64,000 nucleotides of DNA from Bacteriovoracaceae bacterium (GTDB lineage: Bacteria; Bdellovibrionota; Bacteriovoracia; Bacteriovoracales; Bacteriovoracaceae): positions 1 to 64,000 of the forward strand of contig JABIHA010000127.1 of assembly GCA_018649885.1 (NCBI GenBank), written 5' to 3'. A program made the position numbers and the translations under genes. Numbering within the stretch: the first letter of the stretch is position 1; each line of letters starts with the position of its first letter. This document shows, one piece after another, positions 7,706 through 62,729 of this stretch. The notes under the pieces were generated by a model that saw nothing but the letters and a program-made list of their open reading frames with translations, made no database searches and had not been told where the DNA came from.

Positions 7706-8602
7706 GTGAAGGGGAAATTTCCAATGATGCCACCAACAGTTCTTAGAGTACTAAGCAGTGAAAAATTAGAAACTCCAAATATTGCTCCCGATCAATCCAT
7801 TGGGAACTCCACGGGTGAATTTAGAAGAATCGAAGACAAGCACTTAGTTGATGCACCTCTTCTGGGTGAAGTTTTGACTGTTATCAGTCAATATATGGAT
7901 GCTTCATATCTAGATGACGACACCGACTATACTTTAATAGAATCGCTTTATTTTGATTCGGATAACCTAGATTTTTTCAGACACCATTTTATGGGTCTTG
8001 ATACTAGATATAAAATTCGCGCTAGAAGATACGCTCCCAATGGGAAATGGTCTGAAGGGCCAGTACTTTTAGAGCTTAAGAGAAAGAAAGATGGCGAATG
8101 CAAAAAAAGCCGTTTTATGCTTCCTAAAAAAGATTTTGAAGCACTACTCGAGGGAAAAACTCTGAATTTCACCAAAGAGATTTGTGAATTAAACGAATCA
8201 ATGGAAAGTGGAGCACTACTTAGAAGAGTAAATAAAATAAATGAGCTGATCCTTAAGTACGAGCTTAAGCCATCAGTAAGAGTAAGATATCACAGAAATG
8301 CTTTTGAAAGAGATGGCTTTAGAGCAACAGTTGACTCAAATATAGAAGTGAAAATTTTAAAAGATGTTGATACAGAGCTCGCAGCTGAATTAAAAGGTCT
8401 AGATATTTGGACTAAAGCTGAGAAAGTTTTAAGAAAATATCAGCATGGAAAAAAGTTTGTACTTGAATTAAAGCACCAAGGAACTATTCCTGCTTGGGCA
8501 AATGATCTTTTATTAAACGAGCTAGGAATTAAAAAAACAGGCTTCTCCAAATATTGTTGGGGACTGGCCAATGAAGTAAAAGAAAAAGCACGTCTTCAGT
8601 AG
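7706..8602 (+). CDS. VTC (polyphosphate polymerase)-domain protein
   Basis: R.E.K, SLYFDS, KIR.R.Y, LELK, R.T.D and FSKY motifs. Confidence 0.9.
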   Translation: MKGKFPMMPPTVLRVLSSEKLETPNIAPDQSIGNSTGEFRRIEDKHLVDAPLLGEVLTVISQYMDASYLDDDTDYTLIESLYFDSDNLDFFRHHFMGLDTRYKIRARRYAPNGKWSEGPVLLELKRKKDGECKKSRFMLPKKDFEALLEGKTLNFTKEICELNESMESGALLRRVNKINELILKYELKPSVRVRYHRNAFERDGFRATVDSNIEVKILKDVDTELAAELKGLDIWTKAEKVLRKYQHGKKFVLELKHQGTIPAWANDLLLNELGIKKTGFSKYCWGLANEVKEKARLQ

Positions 8603-27263: not shown

Positions 27264-27292
27264 TGTAACATTTTGATCGGTGATGACACTAA
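27264..27292 (+). promoter_or_regulatory. Putative ECF promoter, copy 1
   Basis: TGTAACA-ttttgatcggtgatg-ACACTAA. Confidence 0.65.
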
Positions 27293-43872: not shown

Positions 43873-44107
43873 TGGAACTTCCCAAATCTTTCGTATCTGT
43901 AATTTCATGGCTTTAAAAATGTGAGCAGCATCAGTGTTTTTGCAATTTTTACACCTAGGGCCTCACCCCAAAACGTTTAATTTCGGTGAGTTAGATGGTT
44001 TTTTTGTAGCTTTCAAATTGCGAGTAGATTCAAATCCAAAATTAGACGATTATTGTGTTGCACTCTTTTGGGTTCAGGAGAAGCTTTTACTATGTGAGGA
44101 TATTTTT

Positions 44108-44692
44108 ATGAGTCTAGCGGTAGCATTGATTTTAGGAGCACTTCTGTGGACATTTGCAGAATACAATATTCACCGATTTGCGGGACATGAATGGCAGCGT
44201 AGATCTCAAAAAATTTATACATTTGTAAATATTTTTCGAAGTGAGCATGCAAAACATCATTTTAAGAAAGAATATTTTGCTTCAAATTTTGAAAAGGCAA
44301 AAGCAGCACTCGCTGCAGGCTCATTGATTTTTACATTGGGAGTACTATTTGTTTCGGCTCAACTAGCACTCGCGTTTACCGTTGGGTTTATACTAATGTA
44401 CTTATATTATGAATTTTTCCACCGACTTTGCCATGTGGCACCACCTAAGTCATGGTATGGAAAAATTTTAAGAAAGCACCATTTCTATCATCACTTCGCA
44501 GAAGAGGATATGAACCATGGTGTGACCACAAGGTTTTGGGACTTATTATACGGTACTTACGTAAAAACAAACGTAGTTCCAATAAATAAAAAATATACTA
44601 TGGGTTGGTTAGTTGAAGATGAAAGTGATGATTTAGTAAGAAGTGAGTATGTCAGCGATTACAAAATTGTTTTAAGTACAAAATATACTTAG
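44108..44692 (+). CDS. Sterol desaturase/fatty acid hydroxylase family protein
   Basis: His boxes H...H, H..HH, H...H, HH..HH. Confidence 0.9.
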   Translation: MSLAVALILGALLWTFAEYNIHRFAGHEWQRRSQKIYTFVNIFRSEHAKHHFKKEYFASNFEKAKAALAAGSLIFTLGVLFVSAQLALAFTVGFILMYLYYEFFHRLCHVAPPKSWYGKILRKHHFYHHFAEEDMNHGVTTRFWDLLYGTYVKTNVVPINKKYTMGWLVEDESDDLVRSEYVSDYKIVLSTKYT

Positions 44693-46628: not shown

Positions 46629-47159
46629 ATGAAGTTTGTTTGTATCGTAGTTTTATTTGCATCATTTAGTGTTTTCTCGAGTGAACTAATTTTAAAACAA
46701 AATGGAAAAATTATTAATAAAATTGATATTGTTTCAATCAAATCTGGGCAGTTTAGTAGTAATGGAAAATTTATTGGAAGTCTTGATAAAACTCTTTTCA
46801 ATGCATGGAGAGGATACGAAAGAACCTACAGGGGATATTCTTTCTATGAACTATTAGATGTTATTTATGGAGAAAATTGGAGAAAGGCCAAAACTATTTC
46901 GTTTTATGCACTAGATGGATATAAGCAAGTGGCCAACATTTCTAAAATGATTAGATCATCACATGGAAAACCTGGTTATTTGTCCTATACTGAAACTGGC
47001 AAGAAAGGTTTTTCAAAATTTAAAAGAAAGAACAAAATCGTTGATCCTGGACCACTATATCTTGTTTGGAGCAATTTTTCTGAGAGTGACAAAGCATCAC
47101 ATGGCGATACTCTTAAGTGGCCTTATCAGCTTAAGACTATTGAAATAAAAACTGAGTAA
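46629..47159 (+). CDS. Secreted hypothetical protein (possibly molybdopterin-oxidoreductase-like fold)
   Basis: Signal peptide, A.DGY, GP.YLVW and WPYQL motifs. Confidence 0.6.
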   Translation: MKFVCIVVLFASFSVFSSELILKQNGKIINKIDIVSIKSGQFSSNGKFIGSLDKTLFNAWRGYERTYRGYSFYELLDVIYGENWRKAKTISFYALDGYKQVANISKMIRSSHGKPGYLSYTETGKKGFSKFKRKNKIVDPGPLYLVWSNFSESDKASHGDTLKWPYQLKTIEIKTE

Positions 47160-47174
47160 CAACAGGGATAAATA

Positions 47175-48035
47175 ATGCCAATGAATGATTTACAACATGG
47201 AATTGACGCTTTAATGCCACCACAGATGGCAGAAAAAGCAGAGGCTTTGGGAGTTAAAAAAGCTCATCTAGCTTGGGACAAGGTTTTTGCACTGTCGATA
47301 CTCGCAGGTGCCTTTATTTCTCTTGGAGCTGTTTTTGCGACGACTGTTACAGCTGGAGGTGCAGGAGTTATCCCCTTTGGTATTTTAAAACTATTGGCCG
47401 GATTCGTCTTCTGCCTTGGACTTGTTCTGGTTGTTGTTGCAGGAGCTGAGCTTTTTACTGGAAATAATTTAATCGTTTTGGCCTGGGCCAATGGAAAAAT
47501 AACATTTTTGCAGGTTTTAAAAAACTGGGTGATCGTGTACATCGGTAACTTTGTTGGATGCATACTTACTGCCATTGGAATTTTTCTTTCTGGGCAATAT
47601 AAATTTGGACAAGGAATTGTTGGTGTTAATATTTTGAAAATAGCAAATGTAAAAACAAGCTTGGATTTTGTAGAAGCTTTTATGCTTGGAGTATTTTGTA
47701 ATGCACTGGTTTGCCTTGCTGTTTGGCTAACGCTTAGTGCGAGAAGTACTACGGATAGAATTCTTGCAGTGATATTTCCTATTACTGCATTTGTGGCTGC
47801 AGGTTTTGAGCATAGTATTGCTAATATGTACTTTATTGGCATTGGGCTTTTGGTTAAGTTTTATGCTGGAGCTAAGTTTTGGGCCATGACTCAGTTAGCG
47901 GGTGATTCATTTGAGAGTTTGAATATGGTGAATTTCTTTTTGGTGAATTTGGTTCCGGTTACGCTTGGGAATATTGTGGGGGGGTCTGTTATGGTTGGGT
48001 TGATTTATTGGGTGATTTATATTCGTAAGTCGTAA
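47175..48035 (+). CDS. focA: Formate/nitrite transporter FocA
   Basis: GAELFTGN, CNALVCLAVW, FEHSIANM, TLGNIVGG. Confidence 0.92.
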   Translation: MPMNDLQHGIDALMPPQMAEKAEALGVKKAHLAWDKVFALSILAGAFISLGAVFATTVTAGGAGVIPFGILKLLAGFVFCLGLVLVVVAGAELFTGNNLIVLAWANGKITFLQVLKNWVIVYIGNFVGCILTAIGIFLSGQYKFGQGIVGVNILKIANVKTSLDFVEAFMLGVFCNALVCLAVWLTLSARSTTDRILAVIFPITAFVAAGFEHSIANMYFIGIGLLVKFYAGAKFWAMTQLAGDSFESLNMVNFFLVNLVPVTLGNIVGGSVMVGLIYWVIYIRKS

Positions 48036-48112
48036 TGATAGCAATCTACCAAAAATCACCCCAACCCCACCTCCTCAGTCACAAAAACTCGAACCTTTCA
48101 TATTGTGTATAG

Positions 48113-48520
48113 TTAATTCGATGCTTGGTTCATCGTTTGCATGCAATTTCCATGGTAACCCTGCATTTGATCCATCATATCCATCATCATGTCATGCATT
48201 TGTCCCATATTTTCATTGCTCATCATACCCATACCCTTATCTTGTACCATTACTTTTTCGTCCATCATGGCCATGCCTTTTCCACCCATCATGGAGCTCA
48301 TCAGCTTCATTTGGCTTTGCATATTTTTCATGTGTCTTTCCATCAGTTGTTGTTTCTTTTTTGGATTTTTAGTTTTAGATATTTGATCCATCATTTTATG
48401 CATTTGATCCATCTTTATTTGCATTTTAGACATATCCATATTATCTGGCTTATTTTTTGCAAAAGAAAGGATAGTGGTCATCGAAATTACAATCAGTAAT
48501 ACAAGTGTTAGTTTTGACAT
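48113..48520 (-). CDS. Secreted Met-rich protein (putative Cu/Ag binder)
   Basis: GGAGG RBS, signal peptide, 33 Met in 135 aa. Confidence 0.8.
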   Translation of the reverse strand: MSKLTLVLLIVISMTTILSFAKNKPDNMDMSKMQIKMDQMHKMMDQISKTKNPKKKQQLMERHMKNMQSQMKLMSSMMGGKGMAMMDEKVMVQDKGMGMMSNENMGQMHDMMMDMMDQMQGYHGNCMQTMNQASN

Positions 48521-48710
48521 AATGTATTCCTCCGTTTAAATGTTTGAAAATCCCATCGGGGAGCTTTTGTCCTCTTTATCATATATTCAGAAATATTTTT
48601 TAAATAAATGGAGTTAATTCTACTTAAGAAACTGACATGGTTTTGCGATACCATTAAATTTGACCAGTGTTTGTTTATATAATGATATACAATAGTTTAT
48701 AAAAGGAGCG

Positions 48711-49169
48711 ATGGTGAAATATTCTATGAGTGATTGGCTTGAATATAGCAAAAATTTAATAATAATAAGTACCACTGCTCTATTATTTCATTTAGCATGG
48801 GAGTATCTACAGTGTGGTCCCTTTTTTATCCATATAAACCTTGTACCTACTCACTTTGATATGCTGATAACATCACTTGGAGATGTTGTAATAACTATGA
48901 TTGCTTATTTTACGATTAGTTGGTTAAGTAAAAGTTTTCATTGGATTACTAAAGCTTGGGATCGATGGCATTGGTATGTGATGATTTCTATGGCATTAAT
49001 AATCAGTTTTTCTATAGAGTTATTTGCAATCCGTACTAATAGGTGGGCATATACTGAAATTACACCTCTAGCATTTGGACAAATCTCGCTATTACCTGTT
49101 GCTCAGTTGCTAATTCTCTTTCCTGTTACATTTTATTTTTCAAAAAAAATCATTCAAAAATATAGCTAA
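48711..49169 (+). CDS. Hypothetical 4-TM membrane protein
   Basis: AGGAG RBS; WE..Q, GD, E......RW.Y...P motifs. Confidence 0.75.
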   Translation: MVKYSMSDWLEYSKNLIIISTTALLFHLAWEYLQCGPFFIHINLVPTHFDMLITSLGDVVITMIAYFTISWLSKSFHWITKAWDRWHWYVMISMALIISFSIELFAIRTNRWAYTEITPLAFGQISLLPVAQLLILFPVTFYFSKKIIQKYS

Positions 49170-49193
49170 CTTGGATAGCTAGTTTCAAAATTA

Positions 49194-49812
49194 TTATCTT
49201 GTCTGCTTTCTAGCAATGCCTTTGTACATGAAAATAATTTTAGGAGACTTTTCTAGTTGGAATTTTTTAAGTTTTTCTAATTTAAAGCCTGTATTACGCA
49301 GCTCTTTTTCTATATCGATAGTTAATTGGCATCCAGCTCCAACAATCTTTTGAAAGGGGTTCAGCATTCTTTGTAAGCGAGCGACTGAATTATTACTGCT
49401 TAATCCATGATCCAAAAAAAAAATGGCCATCTTGCTTTAGGACTCTCTTAATCTCACTGAGAGCTTTTGAAAGCTCAGGAATACTACATAATGTAATTGT
49501 ACTAACTACAGTATCGAATTGTTCGTTCTCATAAGGTAGATTTTCAGCGCCAGTTTGTTCGAAATGAACCTTGATTTTTTGTTTTTCTAATTTCTTGTTT
49601 AACTGTTTAAGCATTCCAGGGCTTGGGTCAATGGCCCATAATTCGTTTATATTGTCTGGGTAAAATTCAAGATTTTTACCTGTGCCAATTCCAATTTCTA
49701 GGATTTTCCCCGACGCAGATTTGAGGACTTTTTTTCTGTAATTATCAAAAACTCCAGTGCCTAGGATAAAGTCGTAAAGTTTGGGGAAAATGATTTCGGA
49801 GTATAGTTTCAT
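49194..49812 (-). pseudogene. Class I SAM methyltransferase frameshifted in a T10 run
   Basis: LEIGIGTG...EIKRVLKQDG in one frame and LDHG...GCQL in another; A10 at 49414-49423. Confidence 0.85.
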
Positions 49813-52070: not shown

Positions 52071-52499
52071 ATAAAAATTAGTGATGAGCTCAAAGATTTA
52101 CTTCCCTGTGCAATGCCAAAGTTGGCCTTGAAGACGGCCAGGTTAGCTCAGCTGTGTAGCTCACTTAGAAAAGATGGCTACCGCATCGAGCTGTTCCACG
52201 ACTTTAAGCATGAAGTTCATTCTTTCAAGGAGCTTGGTAGTCTTTTTGGCATTGAGTTTGTGACAAATATTACTCACTACCTCGAAGATTACACTCAATT
52301 TATGATGACTCTACCTATGCCCTCAAAAGATCATCAATATCATCTTGAAGGCTATATTGAGCTACTTCTGGACTATGTTGCACAGATCGCTATTGGAATT
52401 GATTTCGACACAGGTATTTGGGTCACTGAGTTTCACCAGCACTTAGTCAAAGAAAATATGTTGCGCGAAAATAGAGAAGTTGCTAGTTGTAGTAAATAA
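52071..52499 (+). CDS. Hpt-like helical protein
   Basis: FKHEVHSFKELGSLFG resembles the Hpt H-box; GAGGAG RBS points to ATA at 52071, first ATG is at 52113. Confidence 0.55.
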   Translation: MKISDELKDLLPCAMPKLALKTARLAQLCSSLRKDGYRIELFHDFKHEVHSFKELGSLFGIEFVTNITHYLEDYTQFMMTLPMPSKDHQYHLEGYIELLLDYVAQIAIGIDFDTGIWVTEFHQHLVKENMLRENREVASCSK

Positions 52500-52520: not shown

Positions 52521-53216
52521 ATGAAAAAAAAAGTCGCAATCGCAATATTTGTAAAAACCCCCAAATTTTCATCTTGTAAAAGTCGCTTGGCCAAAACAAT
52601 TGGCACTAGTGCTGCCGTTAAGTTTCATTTATTCTCCTCAAATATTGTGGGAGAAACAGTATCTAGTGTGACTCAGGCCCAAGGGTTTTGGTCAATCGCT
52701 GAGCTTGAAGCAATGGATGGCGAATACTGGGGTGGTGGATTAAAAAAAATCCATCAAGGAAAAGGATCTTTAGGGGAGAGACTGGATAGAGTTTACCAAA
52801 CTCTGTCACAAGACTTCGAAAAAGTGATCTTCCTTGGAGCTGATTGTCCACAAGTTGAAAAATCTCAAATCGATCATGCCTTAAAAAAACTTGAAAAAGC
52901 TGATTTTGTATTTGGTCCTTCAGAAGATGGAGGTTTTTATCTATTTGGTGGAGCCGCGCCCATCTCTAGAGAAATTTGGAATGAAACTCGCTACAGCGAA
53001 AGTGACACCTTAGCTCAAATTTCCAGAAGCTTAAAATCCATTGGTAGTGTTGAGATTATTGAAAGTCTATTTGATGTAGATCATTTTGATGAATTTAAAA
53101 AATTAGGCACTGCTCTAGGAAGCTTTCAAAACTTGACTCCAAAAAAGAAAGAGTTACTTAATTTTATTGATCACTTAGTTGAAGAGCAGGAAGCTCCTCC
53201 AAGTACACAAAACTGA
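52521..53216 (+). CDS. TIGR04282/DUF2064 family glycosyltransferase (arsenosugar-associated)
   Basis: KSRLA, QG.G.LG.RL, GADCP, GPSEDGGFYL and DVD motifs. Confidence 0.9.
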   Translation: MKKKVAIAIFVKTPKFSSCKSRLAKTIGTSAAVKFHLFSSNIVGETVSSVTQAQGFWSIAELEAMDGEYWGGGLKKIHQGKGSLGERLDRVYQTLSQDFEKVIFLGADCPQVEKSQIDHALKKLEKADFVFGPSEDGGFYLFGGAAPISREIWNETRYSESDTLAQISRSLKSIGSVEIIESLFDVDHFDEFKKLGTALGSFQNLTPKKKELLNFIDHLVEEQEAPPSTQN

Positions 53217-54097
53217 GCGCAAAACTTGTGGGCCAGATGTACTCTTGATAGAGACTCTTTAAGTGAATATCCCATCTCAAATTTGGGGTCATATGCTAGG
53301 AGTGTACAAGGCATAACCACTATTCGTGATTCTCCCTTTTTCTTAATGACCATCCTCTGTGTTGCACACATCTGATCTTCTGGTCTTTTACCGAGTATAC
53401 TCCAGCAACCAGTACTTATTTCAGGGACATTTTTTTGTAGATCCATCTCGGGGAAGATCACCAACTTTTTCTCGATATCAATACTTATACCATGAGAATT
53501 TAATAATCTTTGGTAGCTGCATTTTGCATCAGTACTAGTTTCTTCTTTGAGAGATCTTCCAGCAATTGAAATATTAAATCGGCTCACAAATAACCACTCA
53601 ACCATCTTTAGACACGAATCAAATGTGCCTTGCCCTCTTTCCTTCTCATGCAGTTCTTTTGTATGGTGATCAAGTGATATCCTGATATGCAATTTGTCAC
53701 TATAGCGTACTAACAAACTTAAAAGAGCAATTTTGTGCCTTTCTAAAACTCTGTGAGCATTGGTCAGCACTAGTACTTCGAATCCACGGGATAGAATTTC
53801 TTCTAAAATTTCTATGATTTGTGGATTCAAAAATGGTTCACCGCCGGTTAAACCTATTAAATTTGTGGTCATCTGATTTTCTTTGATTTCGTCAAGAAAA
53901 GGTGTGATATCTTTTGTTTCAATGAAAGACAGCCTGTCATTGCTAGGAGAGGATTCAATATAACAGTTCTTGCAGCTAAGGTTGCATTTTGTGCCAGTAT
54001 TAAACCAAAGAGTTTTTAGTAGCTGAAAATCAACAAAGGCCCTTTGTTTCCCACATACTGTGGACTCTGGGTTTTTAAAGTAGAGGTTAGTATCCAT
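53171..54097 (-). CDS. Radical SAM protein (ArsS-like paralog)
   Basis: CNLSCKNC, TGGEPF, C-terminal Cys cluster; likely start MDTNL at 54097. Confidence 0.88.
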   Translation of the reverse strand: MDTNLYFKNPESTVCGKQRAFVDFQLLKTLWFNTGTKCNLSCKNCYIESSPSNDRLSFIETKDITPFLDEIKENQMTTNLIGLTGGEPFLNPQIIEILEEILSRGFEVLVLTNAHRVLERHKIALLSLLVRYSDKLHIRISLDHHTKELHEKERGQGTFDSCLKMVEWLFVSRFNISIAGRSLKEETSTDAKCSYQRLLNSHGISIDIEKKLVIFPEMDLQKNVPEISTGCWSILGKRPEDQMCATQRMVIKKKGESRIVVMPCTLLAYDPKFEMGYSLKESLSRVHLAHKFCAQFCVLGGASCSSTK

Positions 54098-54854
54098 TAA
54101 GATTCCAATCATAGTCCATGTAATCAATTCTAGTCGATTTATTCTTTATGAGTTGTTGCTCAGAAATATCTTGGGTAAAGTAAGTTGCTAGAAAATTTGG
54201 GACACTACCAAACTTTTTCTTAAAGTCACCTTTGTACCATTTAAAAATTTTACTCAAATTAAGTGTCTGCTTTTTTAAGTTCCAGCGATTTTTTTTCCTA
54301 TCAGTAATAAAAGAAAAAGTGGCCTTTTCAAGTTGAGAATTTAAAGAGGTTGGGTAGAAGGCTTCAGGGTATAGGTTTGGGCAACCAATAGACGCGCAGT
54401 TCACTGCAAAGTGAATCCTGGGTTCATTGAAGTTTTTTCTAATCATGTCGTGCTCAATACCATCGAGACTTCTTTCTTCTTCAAGGAGAATGAAAAATTT
54501 CTTTTTCCAAGGACTGGTAAAAAGTGAGCCCAGCTTTTTAATTGATTCTAATGGGAAATTATCTACTATGAGTTTTACGGTGAAGGCATTGTAAGCATTG
54601 ATCAGAAATGCCAGCTTTTCATTTTTTGAAAATGCATTGTATTCTTTTTTACTTACAGCAGTTAAGCTACCCAGGTATTTAACCAAAAGATTTTTTTCTT
54701 TTTTTACTCCACGGTAATTTACCAAGTTTTGCTTACCATTTTTTCTCATATTCTTTTTGAGAATCATTGACCACTCTCTATGCGAGTGATCGAAGGCGTA
54801 AGAATTCGATAGGACAAAAAATGCGCAAATTGTGAATAGTGATTTTAGCAACAT
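54087..54854 (-). CDS. DUF547 domain protein (secreted)
   Basis: LAFLINAYNA, EPRIHFAVNCASIGCP, LSKIFKWY, YDW.LN. Confidence 0.93.
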   Translation of the reverse strand: MLLKSLFTICAFFVLSNSYAFDHSHREWSMILKKNMRKNGKQNLVNYRGVKKEKNLLVKYLGSLTAVSKKEYNAFSKNEKLAFLINAYNAFTVKLIVDNFPLESIKKLGSLFTSPWKKKFFILLEEERSLDGIEHDMIRKNFNEPRIHFAVNCASIGCPNLYPEAFYPTSLNSQLEKATFSFITDRKKNRWNLKKQTLNLSKIFKWYKGDFKKKFGSVPNFLATYFTQDISEQQLIKNKSTRIDYMDYDWNLNGY

Positions 54855-55900
54855 GATCCCTCCGTAGAGTTTTTGCCACTAACCCCTTCAAATGGTGATG
54901 AACTACCACAGCCAGGAAAAATGCCATAATGGTCGTCAAAGGTTCCATAAAAATCGAAATGTTTTTCAAAACGAGTATTTTTTAACATCAAAAATGTATT
55001 TCCACAGACTTTCTCCAACTTTGCTTTTTCAAAGTTGTGATGGCCATCTAAATCAAATGATGTGGGTTGTTCTGAAATTGTTCCTTTATAGGCCACACTC
55101 TGTCCATAATCTTCACAGTCATCCTCAAGTCCATCAACTTTAAATAGTCTGTAGGTTAGGGAGTAAAATTCTGTTCCCTCTAGTTTTTCTTTGATCGAAT
55201 CATTTTCAATGGTAATTGGTTTTTTGCTAACACAACGAGCATCACGAAAGCCCACGGCCTTTGCAATCTTCAAAAAATCATTCCAGTAAAGAGCTCCACT
55301 AAGACATTCTCCGTAGAGAACTGGATCAGCTTGCAATTCGGCTGATATTCTTCTGCTGGCGTAAACATCTGAGAAATAGAATTCGCCACCAGACTTTAAT
55401 TTGTTGAAACAATCTCTTAGAACTTTTTCTTTATTTTTACATAAGTTAATCACGCAGTTTGAAATGATTAAATCAAAGTAATCATTTTTAAGGGGAGTTT
55501 CTTCCATTTCATCAATATTGCCTTTGATAAAACTAATATTGGGTTTTTGGTAAGAAAATTTCTCCGTGTGATAATCTACATACTTATTTGCAACGAGAAG
55601 TTGCTCATCTGTCATATCAAGACCTACAACTTCACCACTTTCACCCACGAGTTTTGAGGTGATATAAGCATCTCTGCCACTTCCAGATCCAAGATCGAGA
55701 ACTTTAAGGCCTGCTAGCTCACTGGGAATGGCAAGACCACAGCCGTAATACTTTCTATGAACTTCATCATGGACTAAGGACATTGCCTCTTTGATAAAAT
55801 TTGGCGGCGGCTCTAATGTGCAGCACGCGTTTGTTTTTAAATCATCAGACTCTTTTAATTCTTTTCCGTAGTACTCTTGAACTTCTTGGTGGATGTCCAT
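54845..55900 (-). CDS. arsM: Arsenite methyltransferase
   Basis: LKTNACC, YYGCG, LDLGSGSGRD, SNCVINL, GECLSGA and terminal CC. Confidence 0.9.
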   Translation of the reverse strand: MDIHQEVQEYYGKELKESDDLKTNACCTLEPPPNFIKEAMSLVHDEVHRKYYGCGLAIPSELAGLKVLDLGSGSGRDAYITSKLVGESGEVVGLDMTDEQLLVANKYVDYHTEKFSYQKPNISFIKGNIDEMEETPLKNDYFDLIISNCVINLCKNKEKVLRDCFNKLKSGGEFYFSDVYASRRISAELQADPVLYGECLSGALYWNDFLKIAKAVGFRDARCVSKKPITIENDSIKEKLEGTEFYSLTYRLFKVDGLEDDCEDYGQSVAYKGTISEQPTSFDLDGHHNFEKAKLEKVCGNTFLMLKNTRFEKHFDFYGTFDDHYGIFPGCGSSSPFEGVSGKNSTEGSCC

Positions 55901-58035
55901 ACTTTTTCACCTCGCACATAGCTATGAAATTTTTCTATAAATCTTAAAAGTTTTTCTGGTTTTCTATTTTGCTTATAAACTCCGGCCAGGTATTTATTTG
56001 CCTCGCTCATTGTTGGGTAGGGATGAATAGTTCCCAGTATTTTATTTAACCCCAATCCATGCTTCATAGCAAAGGTAAATTCGCTTAAAAGCTCTCCAGC
56101 ATTGTATCCAACTATGGTGGCACCTAAAATTCTATCACTTCCTGTCTTGGTGATTACCTTCACAAATCCTGCTGCTTCACCTTCACAAATGGCCCTATCC
56201 AAATCATCTATGCCATATTTTGTGACTTCATATGAAAGTCCTTGCTCTTTAGCTGCTCTCTCATTCACTCCCACAGTTGCAACCTCTGGATCGAGATAGG
56301 TGCACCAAGGAATTGTTTGATAGTCCACCTTGAATTTCTTCACTGCACCAAAGAGTGCATTAACAGATGTGTACCAAGCTTGATGGGCCGCTACGTGAGT
56401 TAGCTGATAGGGCCCTGTTACATCTCCGCAGGCGTATATATTGGGATAGTTTGTCTGTAGATACTCATTGGCCTCTATAGTGCCATTTCTTCTTAGTTCA
56501 ACCCCTAGCTCTTCAAGGCCAAATCCTTTGGTGTTTGCCTTTCTTCCAACTGCCACTAGCACCTTATCAAATTCGATGATGACTTCACCGATAGCACTAG
56601 AGCAAGTAAGCCGGTTACCCTTAAACTTAATGGCCTTGTGAGTTGTGAGAATATTGACTCCTTCTTTTTCGAGCTTATTTTTGACAAATTCACTGACTTC
56701 CTCATCTTCTCTAGCTAAAAGCAAGGGCGCCATTTCTACAACGCTAACACTTGAGCCCAGTCTATTAAATGTTTGTGCCATTTCTAGACCTATTGGTCCT
56801 CCTCCTAGAACAATAAGTCTTTTGGGAAGCTCTTCTAATTTCCAAAGATTTTCAGATGTTAATACATCTGCTTTTTCAATCCCTGGAATTGGGGGGACAA
56901 ATGGTGAGGCACCCGTTGCAACGACAATATTTTTTGTTTTAATAATTTGGCCGTTAACTTCGACTTCCCAAGGAGATATAATTTTGGCCTCTCCAGAGAA
57001 ACATTCAACTCCCAGAGATGAATACCTTTCCACAGAGTCATGGGGTTCAATTTTTTCTATAACCTTTTGAACTCGATTCATTACATTTTTAAAGTCGAAT
57101 TCTATTTCAGTACTTGTTAATCCCAGCTCATTTGCCTTTTTGGCCATATGAAGAATTTTTGCTGATTTAATAATTGCCTTTGAGGGGACACATCCCGTGT
57201 TGAGGCAATCACCTCCCATTTTATCTTTTTCAATTAAGGCGACTCTAGCTTTAACAGCGGCTCCAATATAAGATGTCACAAGTCCAGCTGCTCCTCCTCC
57301 GATGGCCACAATATTGTAGTCAAACACCTCGGGCTTTTTGAACTTTTTGTAAACAGAGTTTGCTTTAAATTTATCTACAATCTTTTTTGAGATAATTGGA
57401 ATTAGGCCAAGTACGGTGAATGAGAGAAGGATTGAAGGAGATAGTATGCCTGAGATCGATTTTAATTTTGAGAGCTGAAGTCCTGCATTAACATAGGCCA
57501 TAGTCCCTAGAATCATCCCTATTTGGCTGACGAAAAAATAAGTGTGAGTTTTAATTTTGGTAAGGCCCATTACAAGGTTAACTAAAAAGAAAGGGAAAAG
57601 AGGAACCAGCCTTAAAGAGAAGAGGTAGAATGCTCCCTCTTTTTCAATTCCCTTATTAATTGAGTTGATCTTGCTGGCAAATTTCTTTTCAACAAAATCT
57701 CTTAAAACTAACCTTGCCACCAAAAAAGCCAGCGTTGCTCCTATGGTACTGGCAAAGGAAACAATGATTGTCCCAGTAACAAATCCAAATATCGCACCAC
57801 CAACCAAGGTAAGAACAGTCGCGCCTGGAAGTGATAGTGCGGTAGAGACAATATAAATGAGAGCATAACTGCCAATAGTTAATATTTGATTTTGAGCATA
57901 AAAAGATCTGATGGAATCTAAATTTTGTTGGAAGTAATCCAGACTTAGATATGATTGAAGATTAAAAATCTTTACTACGGCTAGTAAAATTAAAATTAAT
58001 AAAATTATCAAAATTTTTGTTTGCTTCTTTTTCAT
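55855..58035 (-). CDS. TVP38/DedA (SNARE-associated) membrane domain fused to a pyridine nucleotide-disulfide oxidoreductase
   Basis: LRLVPLFPFF in the N-terminal TM domain; GGGAAG, GGDCLNTGCVPSK, HPYPTMSE; no MerA C-terminal CC. Confidence 0.92.
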   Translation of the reverse strand: MKKKQTKILIILLILILLAVVKIFNLQSYLSLDYFQQNLDSIRSFYAQNQILTIGSYALIYIVSTALSLPGATVLTLVGGAIFGFVTGTIIVSFASTIGATLAFLVARLVLRDFVEKKFASKINSINKGIEKEGAFYLFSLRLVPLFPFFLVNLVMGLTKIKTHTYFFVSQIGMILGTMAYVNAGLQLSKLKSISGILSPSILLSFTVLGLIPIISKKIVDKFKANSVYKKFKKPEVFDYNIVAIGGGAAGLVTSYIGAAVKARVALIEKDKMGGDCLNTGCVPSKAIIKSAKILHMAKKANELGLTSTEIEFDFKNVMNRVQKVIEKIEPHDSVERYSSLGVECFSGEAKIISPWEVEVNGQIIKTKNIVVATGASPFVPPIPGIEKADVLTSENLWKLEELPKRLIVLGGGPIGLEMAQTFNRLGSSVSVVEMAPLLLAREDEEVSEFVKNKLEKEGVNILTTHKAIKFKGNRLTCSSAIGEVIIEFDKVLVAVGRKANTKGFGLEELGVELRRNGTIEANEYLQTNYPNIYACGDVTGPYQLTHVAAHQAWYTSVNALFGAVKKFKVDYQTIPWCTYLDPEVATVGVNERAAKEQGLSYEVTKYGIDDLDRAICEGEAAGFVKVITKTGSDRILGATIVGYNAGELLSEFTFAMKHGLGLNKILGTIHPYPTMSEANKYLAGVYKQNRKPEKLLRFIEKFHSYVRGEKVWTSTKKFKSTTEKN

Positions 58036-58078
58036 ACTCGCCTATATATTTATTTCAGGTTCATCCCGGTTACCTTTG

Positions 58079-58107
58079 TTAGTGTGCCGAGATGGTATAT
58101 TGTTACA
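58079..58107 (-). promoter_or_regulatory. Putative ECF promoter, copy 2 (arsM operon)
   Basis: Minus strand reads TGTAACA-atataccatctcggc-ACACTAA. Confidence 0.7.
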
Positions 58108-58143
58108 CAAGATTATTTATTAAAAGGTGCAAGCATTAAAGTA

Positions 58144-58716
58144 GTGGACCCCGAATTTACCCAGAAGTTGAAAAATGGAGATAAAGACGCCATGTCTAAA
58201 ATCGTCCATGACTACTCGTCCCATCTATTCAAAGCAGCTCTGGGTCTAGGTTTTGATGAAAATGAGTCCAAAGAGTTGACTCAAAAAACCATGGTTAAAT
58301 TCGTGGAAGTGGTCCATAAATTTGAGGGTAGGTCTCATATTCGGACCTTTTTATTCGGCATTTTCTATAATCACGTTCATGAGGCGAGAAGATCCTTCAA
58401 AAAGGCCCAAAGCCATGACCCTATTGATGAAGTGGCGGAGTCGATGTTCGATGAGCGTGGCAATTGGCAAAAAGATGCCAGGGTAAGTTCCCCAGAAAAG
58501 TTTTTAGAAGCCTGTCAAACTATGGATATCATTGAATTATGCTTAGATAAGTTACCCATAAGACAGAAGATGGCCTTCACACTAAAATTTGTTGATTCCG
58601 CCGAAACGAGTGAAATATGTAACTTATTGACGGTTTCTGACACTAACCTAAGACAGCTGCTTTTTAGAGCAAAGAGTAGGCTGAGACTCTGTGTTGAGTC
58701 TCACATGAATAAATAA
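58144..58716 (+). CDS. ECF RNA polymerase sigma factor
   Basis: FEGRS..RT.L.GI region 2, FDERG.W, EIC..L.VS..N...LLFRA..RLR.C region 4; start uncertain. Confidence 0.92.
   Translation: MDPEFTQKLKNGDKDAMSKIVHDYSSHLFKAALGLGFDENESKELTQKTMVKFVEVVHKFEGRSHIRTFLFGIFYNHVHEARRSFKKAQSHDPIDEVAESMFDERGNWQKDARVSSPEKFLEACQTMDIIELCLDKLPIRQKMAFTLKFVDSAETSEICNLLTVSDTNLRQLLFRAKSRLRLCVESHMNK
58618..58646 (+). promoter_or_regulatory. Putative ECF promoter, copy 3 (inside the sigma gene, facing the anti-sigma)
   Basis: TGTAACT-tattgacggtttctg-ACACTAA. Confidence 0.5.
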
Positions 58717-58726
58717 GGACGCGAGA

Positions 58727-58972
58727 ATGTTAAGTTGCAAAGAACTTTACGAACATTTGGCCAGTGGCAAAGAGCTTACTAGGATCCAAAAGCTTCAGTA
58801 TCCTATGCACCTTTTTATGTGTCACAACTGCAAAAAAATTGCCTCTCAATTTAAAACCATAAATTCTAGCTTTAAAAAAGTCGTGACCAAGAGAATGGAA
58901 AAGGCAAGTGAAGATAAAATTAGCGAGCTGGAAAAAAGCGTTTGGGAAGAAGTAGAGCGTAAAATTTCTTAA
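58727..58972 (+). CDS. Soluble zinc-finger (zf-HC2/ZAS) anti-sigma factor
   Basis: SCKE...HLFMCHNC (HxxxCxxC), directly after the sigma gene. Confidence 0.88.
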   Translation: MLSCKELYEHLASGKELTRIQKLQYPMHLFMCHNCKKIASQFKTINSSFKKVVTKRMEKASEDKISELEKSVWEEVERKIS

Positions 58973-60236
58973 AGTAAACTTCGAAGTAATTAAACAAAAT
59001 TGGAAAATACCACATGTGGACTAAAACCTCTGCAAGTCGGTTGTACTGGTAATATCCATAAGGGGTATAAGACAGGCAGCTAAAAAAGGCGTAGGCCATG
59101 GCCCACTTATTTTTTGTATATAGTGAAAATAGTAAAAACCAAATTGTGTACCAGGGATTGAATACAGGTGAGAAAAATATCATGGAGCTGTGAAGGATCA
59201 CTCCTGCTTCAAAAAAGGCACCTTTTTGCAGAGGCCTTGTCATCACTTTTAAATGCACAAGAGTCACGACCATTAAAAATGCTGCAAATGTAATCTGCCT
59301 CGCCAGTGGAATTTCTAGTTCAAGTAGATTAACTAAAAGTGAGTAAAATCCGGGAATCCATACCCAGTCCTTACTAAAACTGAGTACACCACTAAGTAAA
59401 TTCAAATCAGTGATGTGGAACCAAAAAAATAGTCCAAGAGATAGGGGAATAAAAGCTGAAGCTAATATGCTCCTAACTTTGTTAATAGGTGTGGTTTTAT
59501 TTGTAATAAAAAAAATAGGGAGAGTCACCACGCCAATGAGTTTGCTCCAAAAGCTCATGAAATAAAGTCCATAGGTTAATAGCGTTCGTTTCCCATCTTT
59601 TTCCTTCAGCGCAAAAAGAGGTAATAGAAAAACTGCTGCAAAAAGATCTATATGAACAGCTTGAATATATTCTTTTTGTAAAAGAGGAAAAAATACACAT
59701 AAGTAAAGAGCAGGCGTATTTCTTTTTGTGAAAAACCTAAATACTAAAGCAATCAGAAGTGCATTGAGGAGCATTAAACCCCGGAAAGCAAATTCGAAGG
59801 GGAGCTTGGCCACCAGGCTAAACCACAGTATTCCCAGCGGAGGATAAATCGTCGTGAGGTTGGAAAACCCAATACGATTTTTAGCCGCGTATTCGATATG
59901 TGACAGGGCCGCGTGGTCTGGGGATAGAAGGTAGGGGCTGAGGCCACTGGCCATAACTTTCCCCTCCCATATATAGCGGTAATGATCATTTTCAAAAATT
60001 GGTGAGTGAGAACACATTACCATTACCACACCGATGAAAAAGGCCACAGGTGAGAGTTCAAAATTAGTGGAGTGTTTTTTTAAAAGCACTAAGCACAAGG
60101 CCAGAAATCCAAAATTGTATAAGATGTAATAGATACCACCAAAGTACTCCGGTCCCGGAGATTTTAGTGCGTAGGAAACTACTGCTAGGAAAAGTGCATT
60201 AAGTATCCAAAGAAAATTGATCTTATTTTTTGTCAT
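58920..60236 (-). CDS. Polytopic GT-C-type (DUF2029/GT87-like) glycosyltransferase
   Basis: D.YRY.WEG, TIYPP, H.D, K and PWY motifs; many TM helices. Confidence 0.82.
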   Translation of the reverse strand: MTKNKINFLWILNALFLAVVSYALKSPGPEYFGGIYYILYNFGFLALCLVLLKKHSTNFELSPVAFFIGVVMVMCSHSPIFENDHYRYIWEGKVMASGLSPYLLSPDHAALSHIEYAAKNRIGFSNLTTIYPPLGILWFSLVAKLPFEFAFRGLMLLNALLIALVFRFFTKRNTPALYLCVFFPLLQKEYIQAVHIDLFAAVFLLPLFALKEKDGKRTLLTYGLYFMSFWSKLIGVVTLPIFFITNKTTPINKVRSILASAFIPLSLGLFFWFHITDLNLLSGVLSFSKDWVWIPGFYSLLVNLLELEIPLARQITFAAFLMVVTLVHLKVMTRPLQKGAFFEAGVILHSSMIFFSPVFNPWYTIWFLLFSLYTKNKWAMAYAFFSCLSYTPYGYYQYNRLAEVLVHMWYFPILFNYFEVYFKKFYALLLPKRFFPAR

Positions 60237-60241
60237 ATCCA

Positions 60242-60270
60242 TTAGTGTGAAATATATGTAAATTGTGACA
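60242..60270 (-). promoter_or_regulatory. Putative ECF promoter, copy 4 (GT-C gene)
   Basis: Minus strand reads TGTCACA-atttacatatatttc-ACACTAA. Confidence 0.7.
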
Positions 60271-60305
60271 CTTTTTCAAACGAGGTCGTAATTAGTAAAA
60301 AAGAT

Positions 60306-61016
60306 GTGATTGTCATTATCCCCGCCTTGAATGAAGAAGATTCTATCGGCTTGGTTTTACAAGAGATTCCCATGAAAAGGGTCAAACAAGTTATTGTTGT
60401 TAATAATGACTCAAGTGATCAAACAGCTTGTGTTGCAACCAAGCATGGCGCTCATGTGGTTCATGAACCAATTCGTGGCTACGGTAAGTGTTGCCTGACA
60501 GGAATCGCTGAGGCCAGAAAAGATCCAGCTGACATAGTGGTTTTTTTAGATGGAGATTACTCTGATCACCCAGAGGAGATGGACCAACTCCTTTCTAAGC
60601 TTGATAGCGGATACGACTTTGTCATAGGAAGTAGAATGCTTGGAAAAGCAAAGCCGGGGGCGCTTCTTCCTCAGGCCCGGTTTGGAAACTGGCTGGCCAC
60701 AACACTTACTAAATGGTTTTTTGGAGGAGTTGCCTTCTCTGACCTGGGACCATTCAGGGCCATTAAGTGGAGCTCGCTTGAGAGAATAAAAATGTGCGAT
60801 GAAGACTTTGGTTGGACTATGGAGATGCAAGTTAAGGCCATAAGCTTTGGGCTTAAATACACAGAAGTCAGCGTCAGTTATCGAAAGCGCGTAGGAGTTT
60901 CTAAAATTACCGGAACAGTCTGCGGAACTATCAAGGCCGGTTACAAAATTCTCTATACTATTTTTAAGTACCGCATTCTTAGTTGGATTAAATCAAGCTC
61001 ATTTTCTTCAAAATAA
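60306..61016 (+). CDS. GT2 (DPM1-like) glycosyltransferase
   Basis: IIPALNEE, FLDGDYSD, DLGPFRAI and GVSKI motifs. Confidence 0.93.
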   Translation: MIVIIPALNEEDSIGLVLQEIPMKRVKQVIVVNNDSSDQTACVATKHGAHVVHEPIRGYGKCCLTGIAEARKDPADIVVFLDGDYSDHPEEMDQLLSKLDSGYDFVIGSRMLGKAKPGALLPQARFGNWLATTLTKWFFGGVAFSDLGPFRAIKWSSLERIKMCDEDFGWTMEMQVKAISFGLKYTEVSVSYRKRVGVSKITGTVCGTIKAGYKILYTIFKYRILSWIKSSSFSSK

Positions 61017-61808: not shown

Positions 61809-62729
61809 TTAAAGTTTAAAATTGGTATTTAAGATTTGATTGCTCCAAGAAATCCTTTTTTGATCATTTATAGAGTAACCATACAGTGAATCACCTATCA
61901 GAGTGTATATGGCTTTTTGTTCAACTCTTTTTTCGAAGTCTTTATCAACATGTCCAGAATAATTTTCCACTACCATATGATAAAATTTACGATTAGATGC
62001 CCATATACAAGCAAAGTCTGCTGCTGGATCTCCAATGGCCATATCTGTCCAGTCGATAATTCCGGTGATCTTATTTTCTGCTCCCCCACAAATAATATGT
62101 TCAACACCTAAATCATTGTGAGTGAGAACCTTTTTTCCAAGAAAAGGTGTAATGCCCTTGTACTTTTCAAAGAGTATATTGAATTTATTCCATACACTTA
62201 TTGGAATCATACCTTTCATTTCTTCAAGATTTTTTTTTGTCTCATCTCTAAAGTCTTTTGTAACTTCACTTCTTTCTTCAAAAATAGAGAGGTTTTCAAT
62301 TTTTTTCAATGTATTCAAACTGTGCAAGGTCGTTAAAAAATCTCCCATGGTTTTTGCGTTAGCGATTGTTGCATATTGACTGGGAGGTATCTCGATAATG
62401 GGAGCACCTTCAATTTTTTTATAACCACCGATTGTATTGGGGAAGACCTTCGAGGAATGAGAAATAAATGAATAATCTGGGGATAAAATGGGAAGCGAGT
62501 CGCTTAAAAGCTTCATCACCTCTAGTTCTTTGTTGAATAAGGAGTTGTATTTGTCTCGTCTAGGAAAACGAAAGATAAATTCAGCGTTGATTTCAAAACA
62601 ATTAAAATCCCATCCACTACCAAGAAATTTTATAGATGATACTAAAAGTTCGGGAAAAGCTTCAGCCAGAATAAGTTTCGCCTTCGCACAATCCAAAGAA
62701 TATTGATCTTCCCACTGCTTTGGGTCCAT
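61809..62729 (-). CDS. Aminoglycoside phosphotransferase (APH)-family kinase
   Basis: GSGWD, FRFPR, HNDL...HI, GIIDW.D..IGDPA.D. Confidence 0.88.
   Translation of the reverse strand: MDPKQWEDQYSLDCAKAKLILAEAFPELLVSSIKFLGSGWDFNCFEINAEFIFRFPRRDKYNSLFNKELEVMKLLSDSLPILSPDYSFISHSSKVFPNTIGGYKKIEGAPIIEIPPSQYATIANAKTMGDFLTTLHSLNTLKKIENLSIFEERSEVTKDFRDETKKNLEEMKGMIPISVWNKFNILFEKYKGITPFLGKKVLTHNDLGVEHIICGGAENKITGIIDWTDMAIGDPAADFACIWASNRKFYHMVVENYSGHVDKDFEKRVEQKAIYTLIGDSLYGYSINDQKRISWSNQILNTNFKL

Follow-up and report, generated by a model that had tools for sequence, protein, structure and literature searches.

The closest described relative of the locus reported here is the ArsM–ArsS pair of Synechocystis. 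In that system ArsS adenosylates dimethylarsenite to dimethylarsinoyl-adenosine (DDMAA) and acts together with the arsenite methyltransferase ArsM, according to the available portions of the sources (PMC13598754; PMC8552651; bioRxiv 2022.09.23.509062). ArsS, a radical S-adenosylmethionine (radical SAM) enzyme described by the profile TIGR04167, is the protein by which arsenosugar genes get recognized. No enzymes for the steps after DDMAA are named in the accessible parts of the arsenosugar literature consulted. A gene cluster that resembles this system lies at positions 52521..61016 of a 64,000-nucleotide stretch from a Bacteriovoracaceae bacterium (contig JABIHA010000127.1; the whole stretch is called the window below). 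It behaves as an ArsM–ArsS cassette by every genomic test run, yet its radical SAM enzyme is not a member of ArsS. The cluster may well encode a variant arsenosugar-precursor (DDMAA) pathway, a reading to which we give a probability of roughly 0.58.

A sequence-only reading of this DNA had set the radical SAM enzyme beside ArsS. A profile search contradicts an assignment to ArsS, with 69.6 bits against TIGR04167 (cut-off 300) and a best E-value for this profile of 4.5e-22 over 31 family members. The enzyme passes no NCBIfam model among those listed for it. A canonical ArsS elsewhere was considered as an explanation and rejected, as none above the TIGR04167 cut-off occurs anywhere in the genome. 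A scan of genome contigs with a single protein as query gave 3 loci only. The family is large: all of the at least 8000 candidates scored match it, and the best 120 share 55–62% identity. Identity to ArsS is about 24–28%. The CxxxCxxC core is present, and six C-terminal cysteines (231, 244, 264, 293, 297, 304) are invariant across 31 family sequences. When the two full profiles are aligned globally (HH), the MC, H-C and terminal SC motifs fall opposite those of ArsS, but the tail by itself gives no significant alignment. The predicted structure (pLDDT 90) matches SPASM/twitch-type radical SAM enzymes distantly; the structure search returned no close solved structure, and the ESM Atlas gave only 'putative radical SAM' clusters. 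A sister subclade (L223–L228, L204) at about 33% identity has the same partners, including full fusions of a VTT domain to a reductase, and a tail motif intermediate between the family and ArsS. Trees group the family and this subclade beside ArsS. A quick tree gave SH-aLRT support of 96; a careful tree, built on a subsample with six long-branch outgroups dropped, gave 94/84. This kinship is suggestive only, because the outgroups were few (11–17) and included no Rv1681-family sequence.

Profile scores, distribution and fusions together point to an unnamed family that fills the slot of ArsS. Among 36 relatives in the bacterium's own family, 17 carry the radical SAM enzyme, three others carry ArsS and none has both (18 against 3 of 37, with both in 0, when the own genome is included); the exclusion is not significant in this family alone. 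Two larger samples of 251 genomes each, from the class and the phylum of an alphaproteobacterial carrier, were drawn evenly over groups, with some genomes in both. In the class sample the enzyme occurs in 79 genomes, ArsS in two others and the transferase TIGR04282 in 100; 77 of the 79 carriers have TIGR04282. The phylum sample holds the enzyme in 25 genomes and ArsS in 103, with an overlap of 0 against 10.3 expected. All 25 carriers have TIGR04282, exactly one of the two radical SAM enzymes is found in 126 of the 133 genomes with TIGR04282, and 116 genomes lack all three genes. The significance of both the exclusion and the co-occurrence is overstated, because the samples share genomes and kin are not independent. 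TIGR04282 adjoins the radical SAM gene in 0 of 17 family loci, a count of loci only, the family genomes not having been surveyed for it. A long ArsM is present in 15 family genomes, all of which have the radical SAM enzyme or ArsS, and in 0 of the 16 that lack both. The genomic association typical of ArsS (ArsM, TIGR04282 and TIGR04283) holds for this family as well.

Neighbourhoods and gene fusions extend the parallel. In a radius of 6 kb around the radical SAM gene, the 17 family loci contain ArsM (9), a DUF547 protein (8), a GT-C-fold glycosyltransferase (6), a family 2 glycosyltransferase, GT2 (5), and an extracytoplasmic function (ECF) sigma factor (3), so that sigma, GT-C and GT2 genes are indeed syntenic with ArsM and the radical SAM gene in relatives. 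The sequence-only reading had named lack of this synteny as grounds for refutation, and it withstands that check. Cassette partner types surround the sister subclade in 7/7 loci and ArsS in 8/9, counted with a scan threshold under which two TIGR04283-like neighbours (132 and 124 bits) went undetected. The same sigma factor, anti-sigma factor and DUF547 gene occur at one canonical ArsS locus. Fusions were sought in 11 long proteins, picked out of the 150 top-ranking cluster representatives. Two join the radical SAM enzyme to ArsM, one in each order and both in the sister subclade, and the rSAM–ArsM form is found also as a RefSeq protein of Deferribacter thermophilus. Two more are TIGR04282–rSAM fusions, and two carry a metallophosphoesterase.

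ArsM itself has a published definition: a SAM-binding domain plus at least three of four cysteines matching CmArsM 44/72/174/224 (PMC5552862, as far as its available text goes). The window protein has the domain and cysteines at 26/27, 54, 149 and 199, spaced 28/95/50 against 28/102/50. Its alignments to arsenite methyltransferases of solved structure have E-values from 1e-83 to 1e-96 (1.9e-96 for 5evj), yet it stays under the NCBIfam cut-offs (PRK11873, 160 against 263; NF038099, AsSugarArsM, 82 against 400). The earlier call of ArsM thus stands, as a four-cysteine AS3MT-type enzyme, and an arsenosugar-type gene set is supported. All nine genes of the cluster are intact, in place and tightly packed, as first described, with overlapping ends of 10–53 nt. 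TIGR04282 lies on the plus strand; a minus-strand overlapping run holds the VTT-flavoprotein, arsM, DUF547 and radical SAM genes. The ECF sigma gene and an 81-amino-acid HxxxCxxC gene diverge from this run, and the GT-C gene (minus) stands back to back with GT2 (plus). The features are as follows.

52521..53216, plus strand: TIGR04282/DUF2064 CofC-like transferase, a separate unit convergent with the radical SAM gene (TIGR04282, 136.3 against 134; Pfam CofC, 23.4 against 22)
53171..54097, minus strand: radical SAM enzyme of 308 amino acids, from an unnamed family that takes the place of ArsS (profile scores, distribution, fusions); CxxxCxxC at 38/42/45
54087..54854, minus strand: DUF547 protein, probably exported (PF04784, 86 bits)
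54845..55900, minus strand: ArsM, long AS3MT-type arsenite methyltransferase (cysteines and 5evj match as above)
55855..58035, minus strand: fusion of a VTT/DedA membrane domain with a flavin disulfide reductase (VTT, Pyr_redox_2 and dimerization domains; CLNTGC)
58079..58107, minus strand: predicted ECF promoter TGTAAC-N17-CACTAA of the VTT–arsM–DUF547–rSAM operon (motif scan)
58144..58716, plus strand: ECF sigma factor, start placed from homologues (TIGR02937 passes)
58618..58646, plus strand: predicted ECF promoter within the sigma gene, upstream of the anti-sigma gene (motif scan)
58727..58972, plus strand: candidate soluble zinc-finger (HxxxCxxC) anti-sigma factor (sequence motif; adjacent homologues)
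58920..60242, minus strand: GT-C-fold membrane glycosyltransferase (invariant D84, R87, Y88; homologue annotation and fold)
60242..60270, minus strand: predicted ECF promoter TGTCAC-N17-CACTAA at the GT-C start (motif scan)
60306..61016, plus strand: soluble, polyprenyl-phosphate-sugar synthase-like GT2, distinct from TIGR04283
27264..28151, plus strand: AhpC/TSA (CxxC) membrane protein with an ECF promoter (27264–27292), a predicted distant regulon member

The G+C content of the cluster is close to that of the remaining window, and the closest named homologues are Bacteriovoracaceae proteins. Twenty sequencing runs are listed with the stretch; 8 hold at least half of its words, all 8 being marine metagenomes, two of them possibly the source. 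Contigs from 4 other marine runs (at most three studies) match without variant letters or joints, none covering the whole stretch, and no RNA dataset is among the listed runs that contain it.

The remaining pathway parts are partly linked to the cluster and partly scattered. TIGR04282, named in the sequence-only reading, passes its cut-off marginally; it matches CofC guanylyltransferase, which suggests sugar-phosphate activation. Directly upstream of it is a 128-amino-acid open reading frame (52113–52499, plus) with a weak Hpt match and no homologue in the relatives' loci. A passing TIGR04283 is on contig C72, unlinked to the cassette, and a passing MTAP on contig C57. MTAP adjoins the radical SAM family in 8/34 metagenomic loci and ArsS in 3/9; its role could be to free adenine from DDMAA, or no more than the salvage of by-products. 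In two loci beside canonical ArsS (L230:9665-11008, L229:11213-12694) a TIGR04283-like GT2 and a TIGR04282-like DUF2064 domain form one protein. A fatty-acid hydroxylase-family gene adjoins TIGR04283/04282 in 4/20 class regions (L187, L189, L199, L200:5300-6148), and another such gene is found in the window at 43934–44689. The DUF547 protein has an N-terminal hydrophobic stretch, judged by eye, and is probably exported. Mercuric reductase MerA carries a C-terminal cysteine pair. MerA was rejected for the VTT-flavoprotein, which lacks this pair and scores 394.8 bits against a cut-off of 454. Fusion to a reductase is the commonest one in the COG0398 subfamily of DedA proteins, thought to flip phospholipids, not undecaprenyl phosphate (bioRxiv 2023.01.04.522824, in its available portion). 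The absence of ArsR, ArsC and Acr3 from the window was confirmed among the 61 open reading frames scanned. Elsewhere in the genome, arsD and arsA both pass their models and an ArsC-like gene scores 152 against 174. The former belong to a MerR-like–arsD–arsA trio on a 7.8-kb contig (L252:188-2759), and an ArsC-like reductase is at L251:5901-6320. Acr3 was not found in this 92%-complete genome, nor was a convincing ArsR, which was sought genome-wide by short motifs only, a weak test.

The regulatory genes had been described as the cluster's own switch. The sigma factor passes TIGR02937 (TIGR02943, 91 against 162), and its start is likely GTG 58144 rather than TTG 58021. The anti-sigma candidate, 81 amino acids with C-x23-HxxxCxxC, reaches 27.8 against 50 on NF052368. 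A shared upstream motif, TGT(A/C)AC-N17-CACTAA, occurs four times in the window (0.02 expected) and seven times in the genome (1.2 expected). One copy precedes the operon, one lies where GT-C begins, one falls within the sigma gene in front of the anti-sigma gene, one precedes AhpC/TSA and one an AhpD-like gene on C72; two copies have no clear target. The gene on C72 (C72:13771-14305, minus) encodes an AhpD/CMD-type protein with CPYC directly behind the motif, which overlaps its first ATG as at GT-C, so that leaderless starts are possible. No ECF motif was seen upstream of TIGR04282, and a sigma-70 promoter scan gave chance numbers (18 against 23 expected). Ten of 36 relatives have the sigma factor: six radical SAM carriers, one ArsS genome and three with neither. 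A looser motif pattern is present in 6/6 sigma-positive carrier loci (5 upstream of the cassette) and 0/11 sigma-negative ones, three of which are shorter than 10 kb; the motif had been fitted on several of the same loci, the independent matches being G013, G003 and the sigma-flanking loci. The sigma-internal promoter recurs at the same position in 6/10 relatives' sigma genes. Neighbours of the sigma gene in relatives include MsrA, YaaA, YceI and a DUF692-type gene. The proposed link between sigma factor and operon is thus upheld by the promoter motif. A dedicated switch is not, since the predicted targets extend to AhpC/TSA and AhpD-like genes, and both radical SAM enzymes are missing from 3 of the 10 relatives that have sigma. 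As the motif tracks the sigma factor across relatives, the system is probably a regulon for thiol stress and not a cassette-dedicated switch.

The two glycosyltransferases are optional partners of the cassette, as is the sigma factor (GT-C in 8/17 and sigma in 6/17 relatives). With the query used, GT-C was found in 8/17 radical SAM carriers and 0/19 other family genomes. The GT-C label has held up despite a weak profile match only (MptB, E 4e-4): homologues bear PF26314/PF09594, the protein has a multi-helix membrane fold with an acidic motif in the first external loop, as the superfamily requires, and its predicted structure (pLDDT 92) finds GT-C-type proteins as best Foldseek matches (ALG3 at E 3.5e-3, GPI mannosyltransferase I, ALG6 and PimE), at probability 1.0 and with none under E 1e-3. 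TIGR04283 was considered for the window GT2 and rejected (40.4 against 182). At 0.8 kb from GT2 is an APH-like phosphotransferase (61809–62729, minus), far under all resistance-gene cut-offs. Other genes of the window include a formate/nitrite channel, a Met-rich exported protein (48113–48520) and a 139-amino-acid, possibly truncated methyltransferase open reading frame within 46629–49812, and a VTC-domain protein among unannotated open reading frames (7706–8599, plus).

The proposed mechanism is as follows. (i) ArsM would methylate As(III) to dimethylarsenite. (ii) The radical SAM enzyme would add a 5'-deoxyadenosyl radical to this product, yielding DDMAA. (iii) The VTT-flavoprotein may keep arsenic or the ArsM thiols reduced at the membrane. 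(iv) MTAP, encoded elsewhere, may remove adenine. (v) The CofC-like TIGR04282 and the distant TIGR04283 would activate the arsenoribose and couple it to an acceptor. (vi) As an optional add-on, GT2 and GT-C may make a lipid-phosphate sugar and transfer it outside the cytoplasm. The zinc anti-sigma factor would release sigma under thiol or oxidative stress, possibly including As(III), and free sigma would turn on the operon together with the peroxiredoxin-like and AhpD-like genes.

Several observations weigh against a DDMAA pathway. The best NCBIfam match of the radical SAM enzyme is the Rv1681 family (NF049973; 80 against a cut-off of 380), above ArsS (70). Its apparent kinship with ArsS is remote: taken by themselves, the C-terminal domains reach only E 0.04 when aligned, and the trees have long branches, 11–17 outgroups and support under the tool's star threshold. 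The ArsM fusions belong to the sister subclade, not to the window enzyme's own clade. Among the 34 metagenomic loci flanked by 6 kb or more, 16 have cassette partners near the enzyme and 18 have none. The exclusion with ArsS partly follows lineage, kin being non-independent and the samples overlapping. A long ArsM is missing from 4/17 family carriers and was detected, with the query used, in just 5/79 class-sample carriers. The promoter motif, besides its partial fitting to the loci in which it was counted, is absent upstream of the G003 cassette and the G011 ArsS locus.

The ArsM gap lends itself to another explanation, in which the joint product of the radical SAM enzyme and TIGR04282/04283 is a 5'-substituted riboside derived from a different heteroatom substrate (a phosphorus, sulfur or selenium analogue), or another arsenic compound, and ArsM is a mere facultative feeder. 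In its favour are the 74/79 alphaproteobacterial carriers without a detectable long ArsM, the metallophosphoesterase fusions and the low identity to ArsS; a radical SAM enzyme or ArsS in 128/251 phylum-sample genomes is also high for a niche detoxification trait. No second methyltransferase that might substitute for ArsM was seen among the conserved neighbours of TIGR04282 in 20 regions chosen from the 77 class genomes that have both TIGR04282 and the radical SAM gene. A Roseomonas plasmid (L239:4031-14906) combines this enzyme with TIGR04282, DUF547, a second radical SAM gene, a PhnDE-type (phosphonate-type) ABC importer, a metallophosphoesterase and VTT/FAD genes, and has no ArsM among the annotated genes within 15 kb, an arrangement compatible with import of methylated arsenic or with another substrate. 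The second radical SAM enzyme there is TrsS/Tes-like, and a similar one is at L121:8532-9959. Two genomes with canonical ArsS (G019, G045) likewise lack a long ArsM, however, so that import of methylated arsenic could account for its absence. As ArsM is fused to the enzyme in both orders and all five long ArsMs of the class sample sit in carriers, we regard this alternative as unlikely. Still less probable is the full model of the sequence-only reading, a single As(III)-induced pathway in which GT2 and GT-C place an arsenosugar on a membrane or surface glycoconjugate. The restriction of GT-C to carriers, the GT-C/GT2 genes beside the cassette in the more distant loci L099 and L225, and the motif at the GT-C start agree with it. 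Against it, GT-C is missing in 9/17 carriers with the query used, GT2 is motif-less and divergently transcribed, three sigma-bearing relatives showed no such promoter ahead of GT-C, nothing links donor or acceptor to arsenic, and the other predicted sigma targets are generic redox genes. As(III) sensing by the sigma system and a surface arseno-glycoconjugate are both speculative. A stress-gene island, in which ArsM alone detoxifies arsenic and the remaining genes are just co-regulated, would accord with the stress-type neighbours of sigma in relatives and with the lack of Acr3, given which methylation might serve resistance; it leaves the ArsS exclusion, the TIGR04282 co-occurrence (77/79 and 25/25) and the fusions unexplained, and is very improbable.

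If the radical SAM enzyme does the job of ArsS, the enzyme lacking so far in 77 of the 100 class-sample genomes with TIGR04282 is supplied, and the makers of arsenic sugars may be many more bacteria than gene labels indicate. Heterotrophic marine bacteria would become candidate arsenosugar makers from methylated arsenic. The co-occurring MTAP, CofC-like TIGR04282 and TIGR04283 suggest a testable order of steps after DDMAA, and the promoter motif offers a direct handle on what induces such clusters. A wider proposal is doubtful as a whole. It posits a second, unlabelled lineage of DDMAA synthases, through which about one-third of the Alphaproteobacteria sampled, and half of this bacteriovoracid-like family, would possess an organoarsenic pathway. 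Scavenged methylarsenic rather than ArsM would mostly feed this pathway, its later steps would run via MTAP, TIGR04282 and TIGR04283, and some marine lineages would finish with a membrane or surface glycoconjugate that bears arsenic, is made by GT-C and comes under a new ECF redox regulon.

The literature searched, with most subscription journals outside its scope, contained no paper on this radical SAM family, nor one on the TGTMAC-N17-CACTAA promoter. Of the NCBIfam models, the Rv1681 family scores highest on the core of the radical SAM enzyme (80–105 bits), far under its cut-off, and leaves the C-terminus of the window enzyme unmatched. The arsinothricin ArsL/ArsM cluster (PMC8552651, available portion) also pairs ArsM with a radical SAM enzyme that forms a C–As bond. 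The window ArsM, however, scores 112 against 500 on the arsinothricin model, the partners here are sugar transferases, and no ArsL-type model is among the 25 best matches listed. ECF16 systems (SigF/EcfF/BcrS) share the −35 TGTAAC, a 16–17 nt spacer and redox-repair targets such as Msr, in the accessible parts of PMC8315932 and PMC3420878. Membership of ECF16 was rejected: the −10 element here is CACTAA, against GTAAC-N16/17-CGAA, and the partner is a soluble zinc-finger anti-sigma factor, not the six-helix NrsF/DUF1109 membrane type. Systems that combine a polyprenyl-phosphate-sugar GT2 with a GT-C enzyme (ALG3, GPI mannosyltransferase I, MptA/B, GT87) have the same GT-C fold and DPM-type GT2, whereas the window pair is linked to an arsenic cassette. 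With Synechocystis ArsM–ArsS the locus shares ArsM, a radical SAM enzyme of about 310 amino acids with a cysteine-rich tail, and the same partner set of TIGR04282, TIGR04283, DUF547, VTT-reductase and MTAP. It differs in its tail motif (HxxCxxxCx6C, against HCxxCx7C in ArsS) and its failure on TIGR04167, in its long AS3MT-type ArsM, in an unlinked TIGR04283, and in the addition of the GT2/GT-C genes and the ECF pair.

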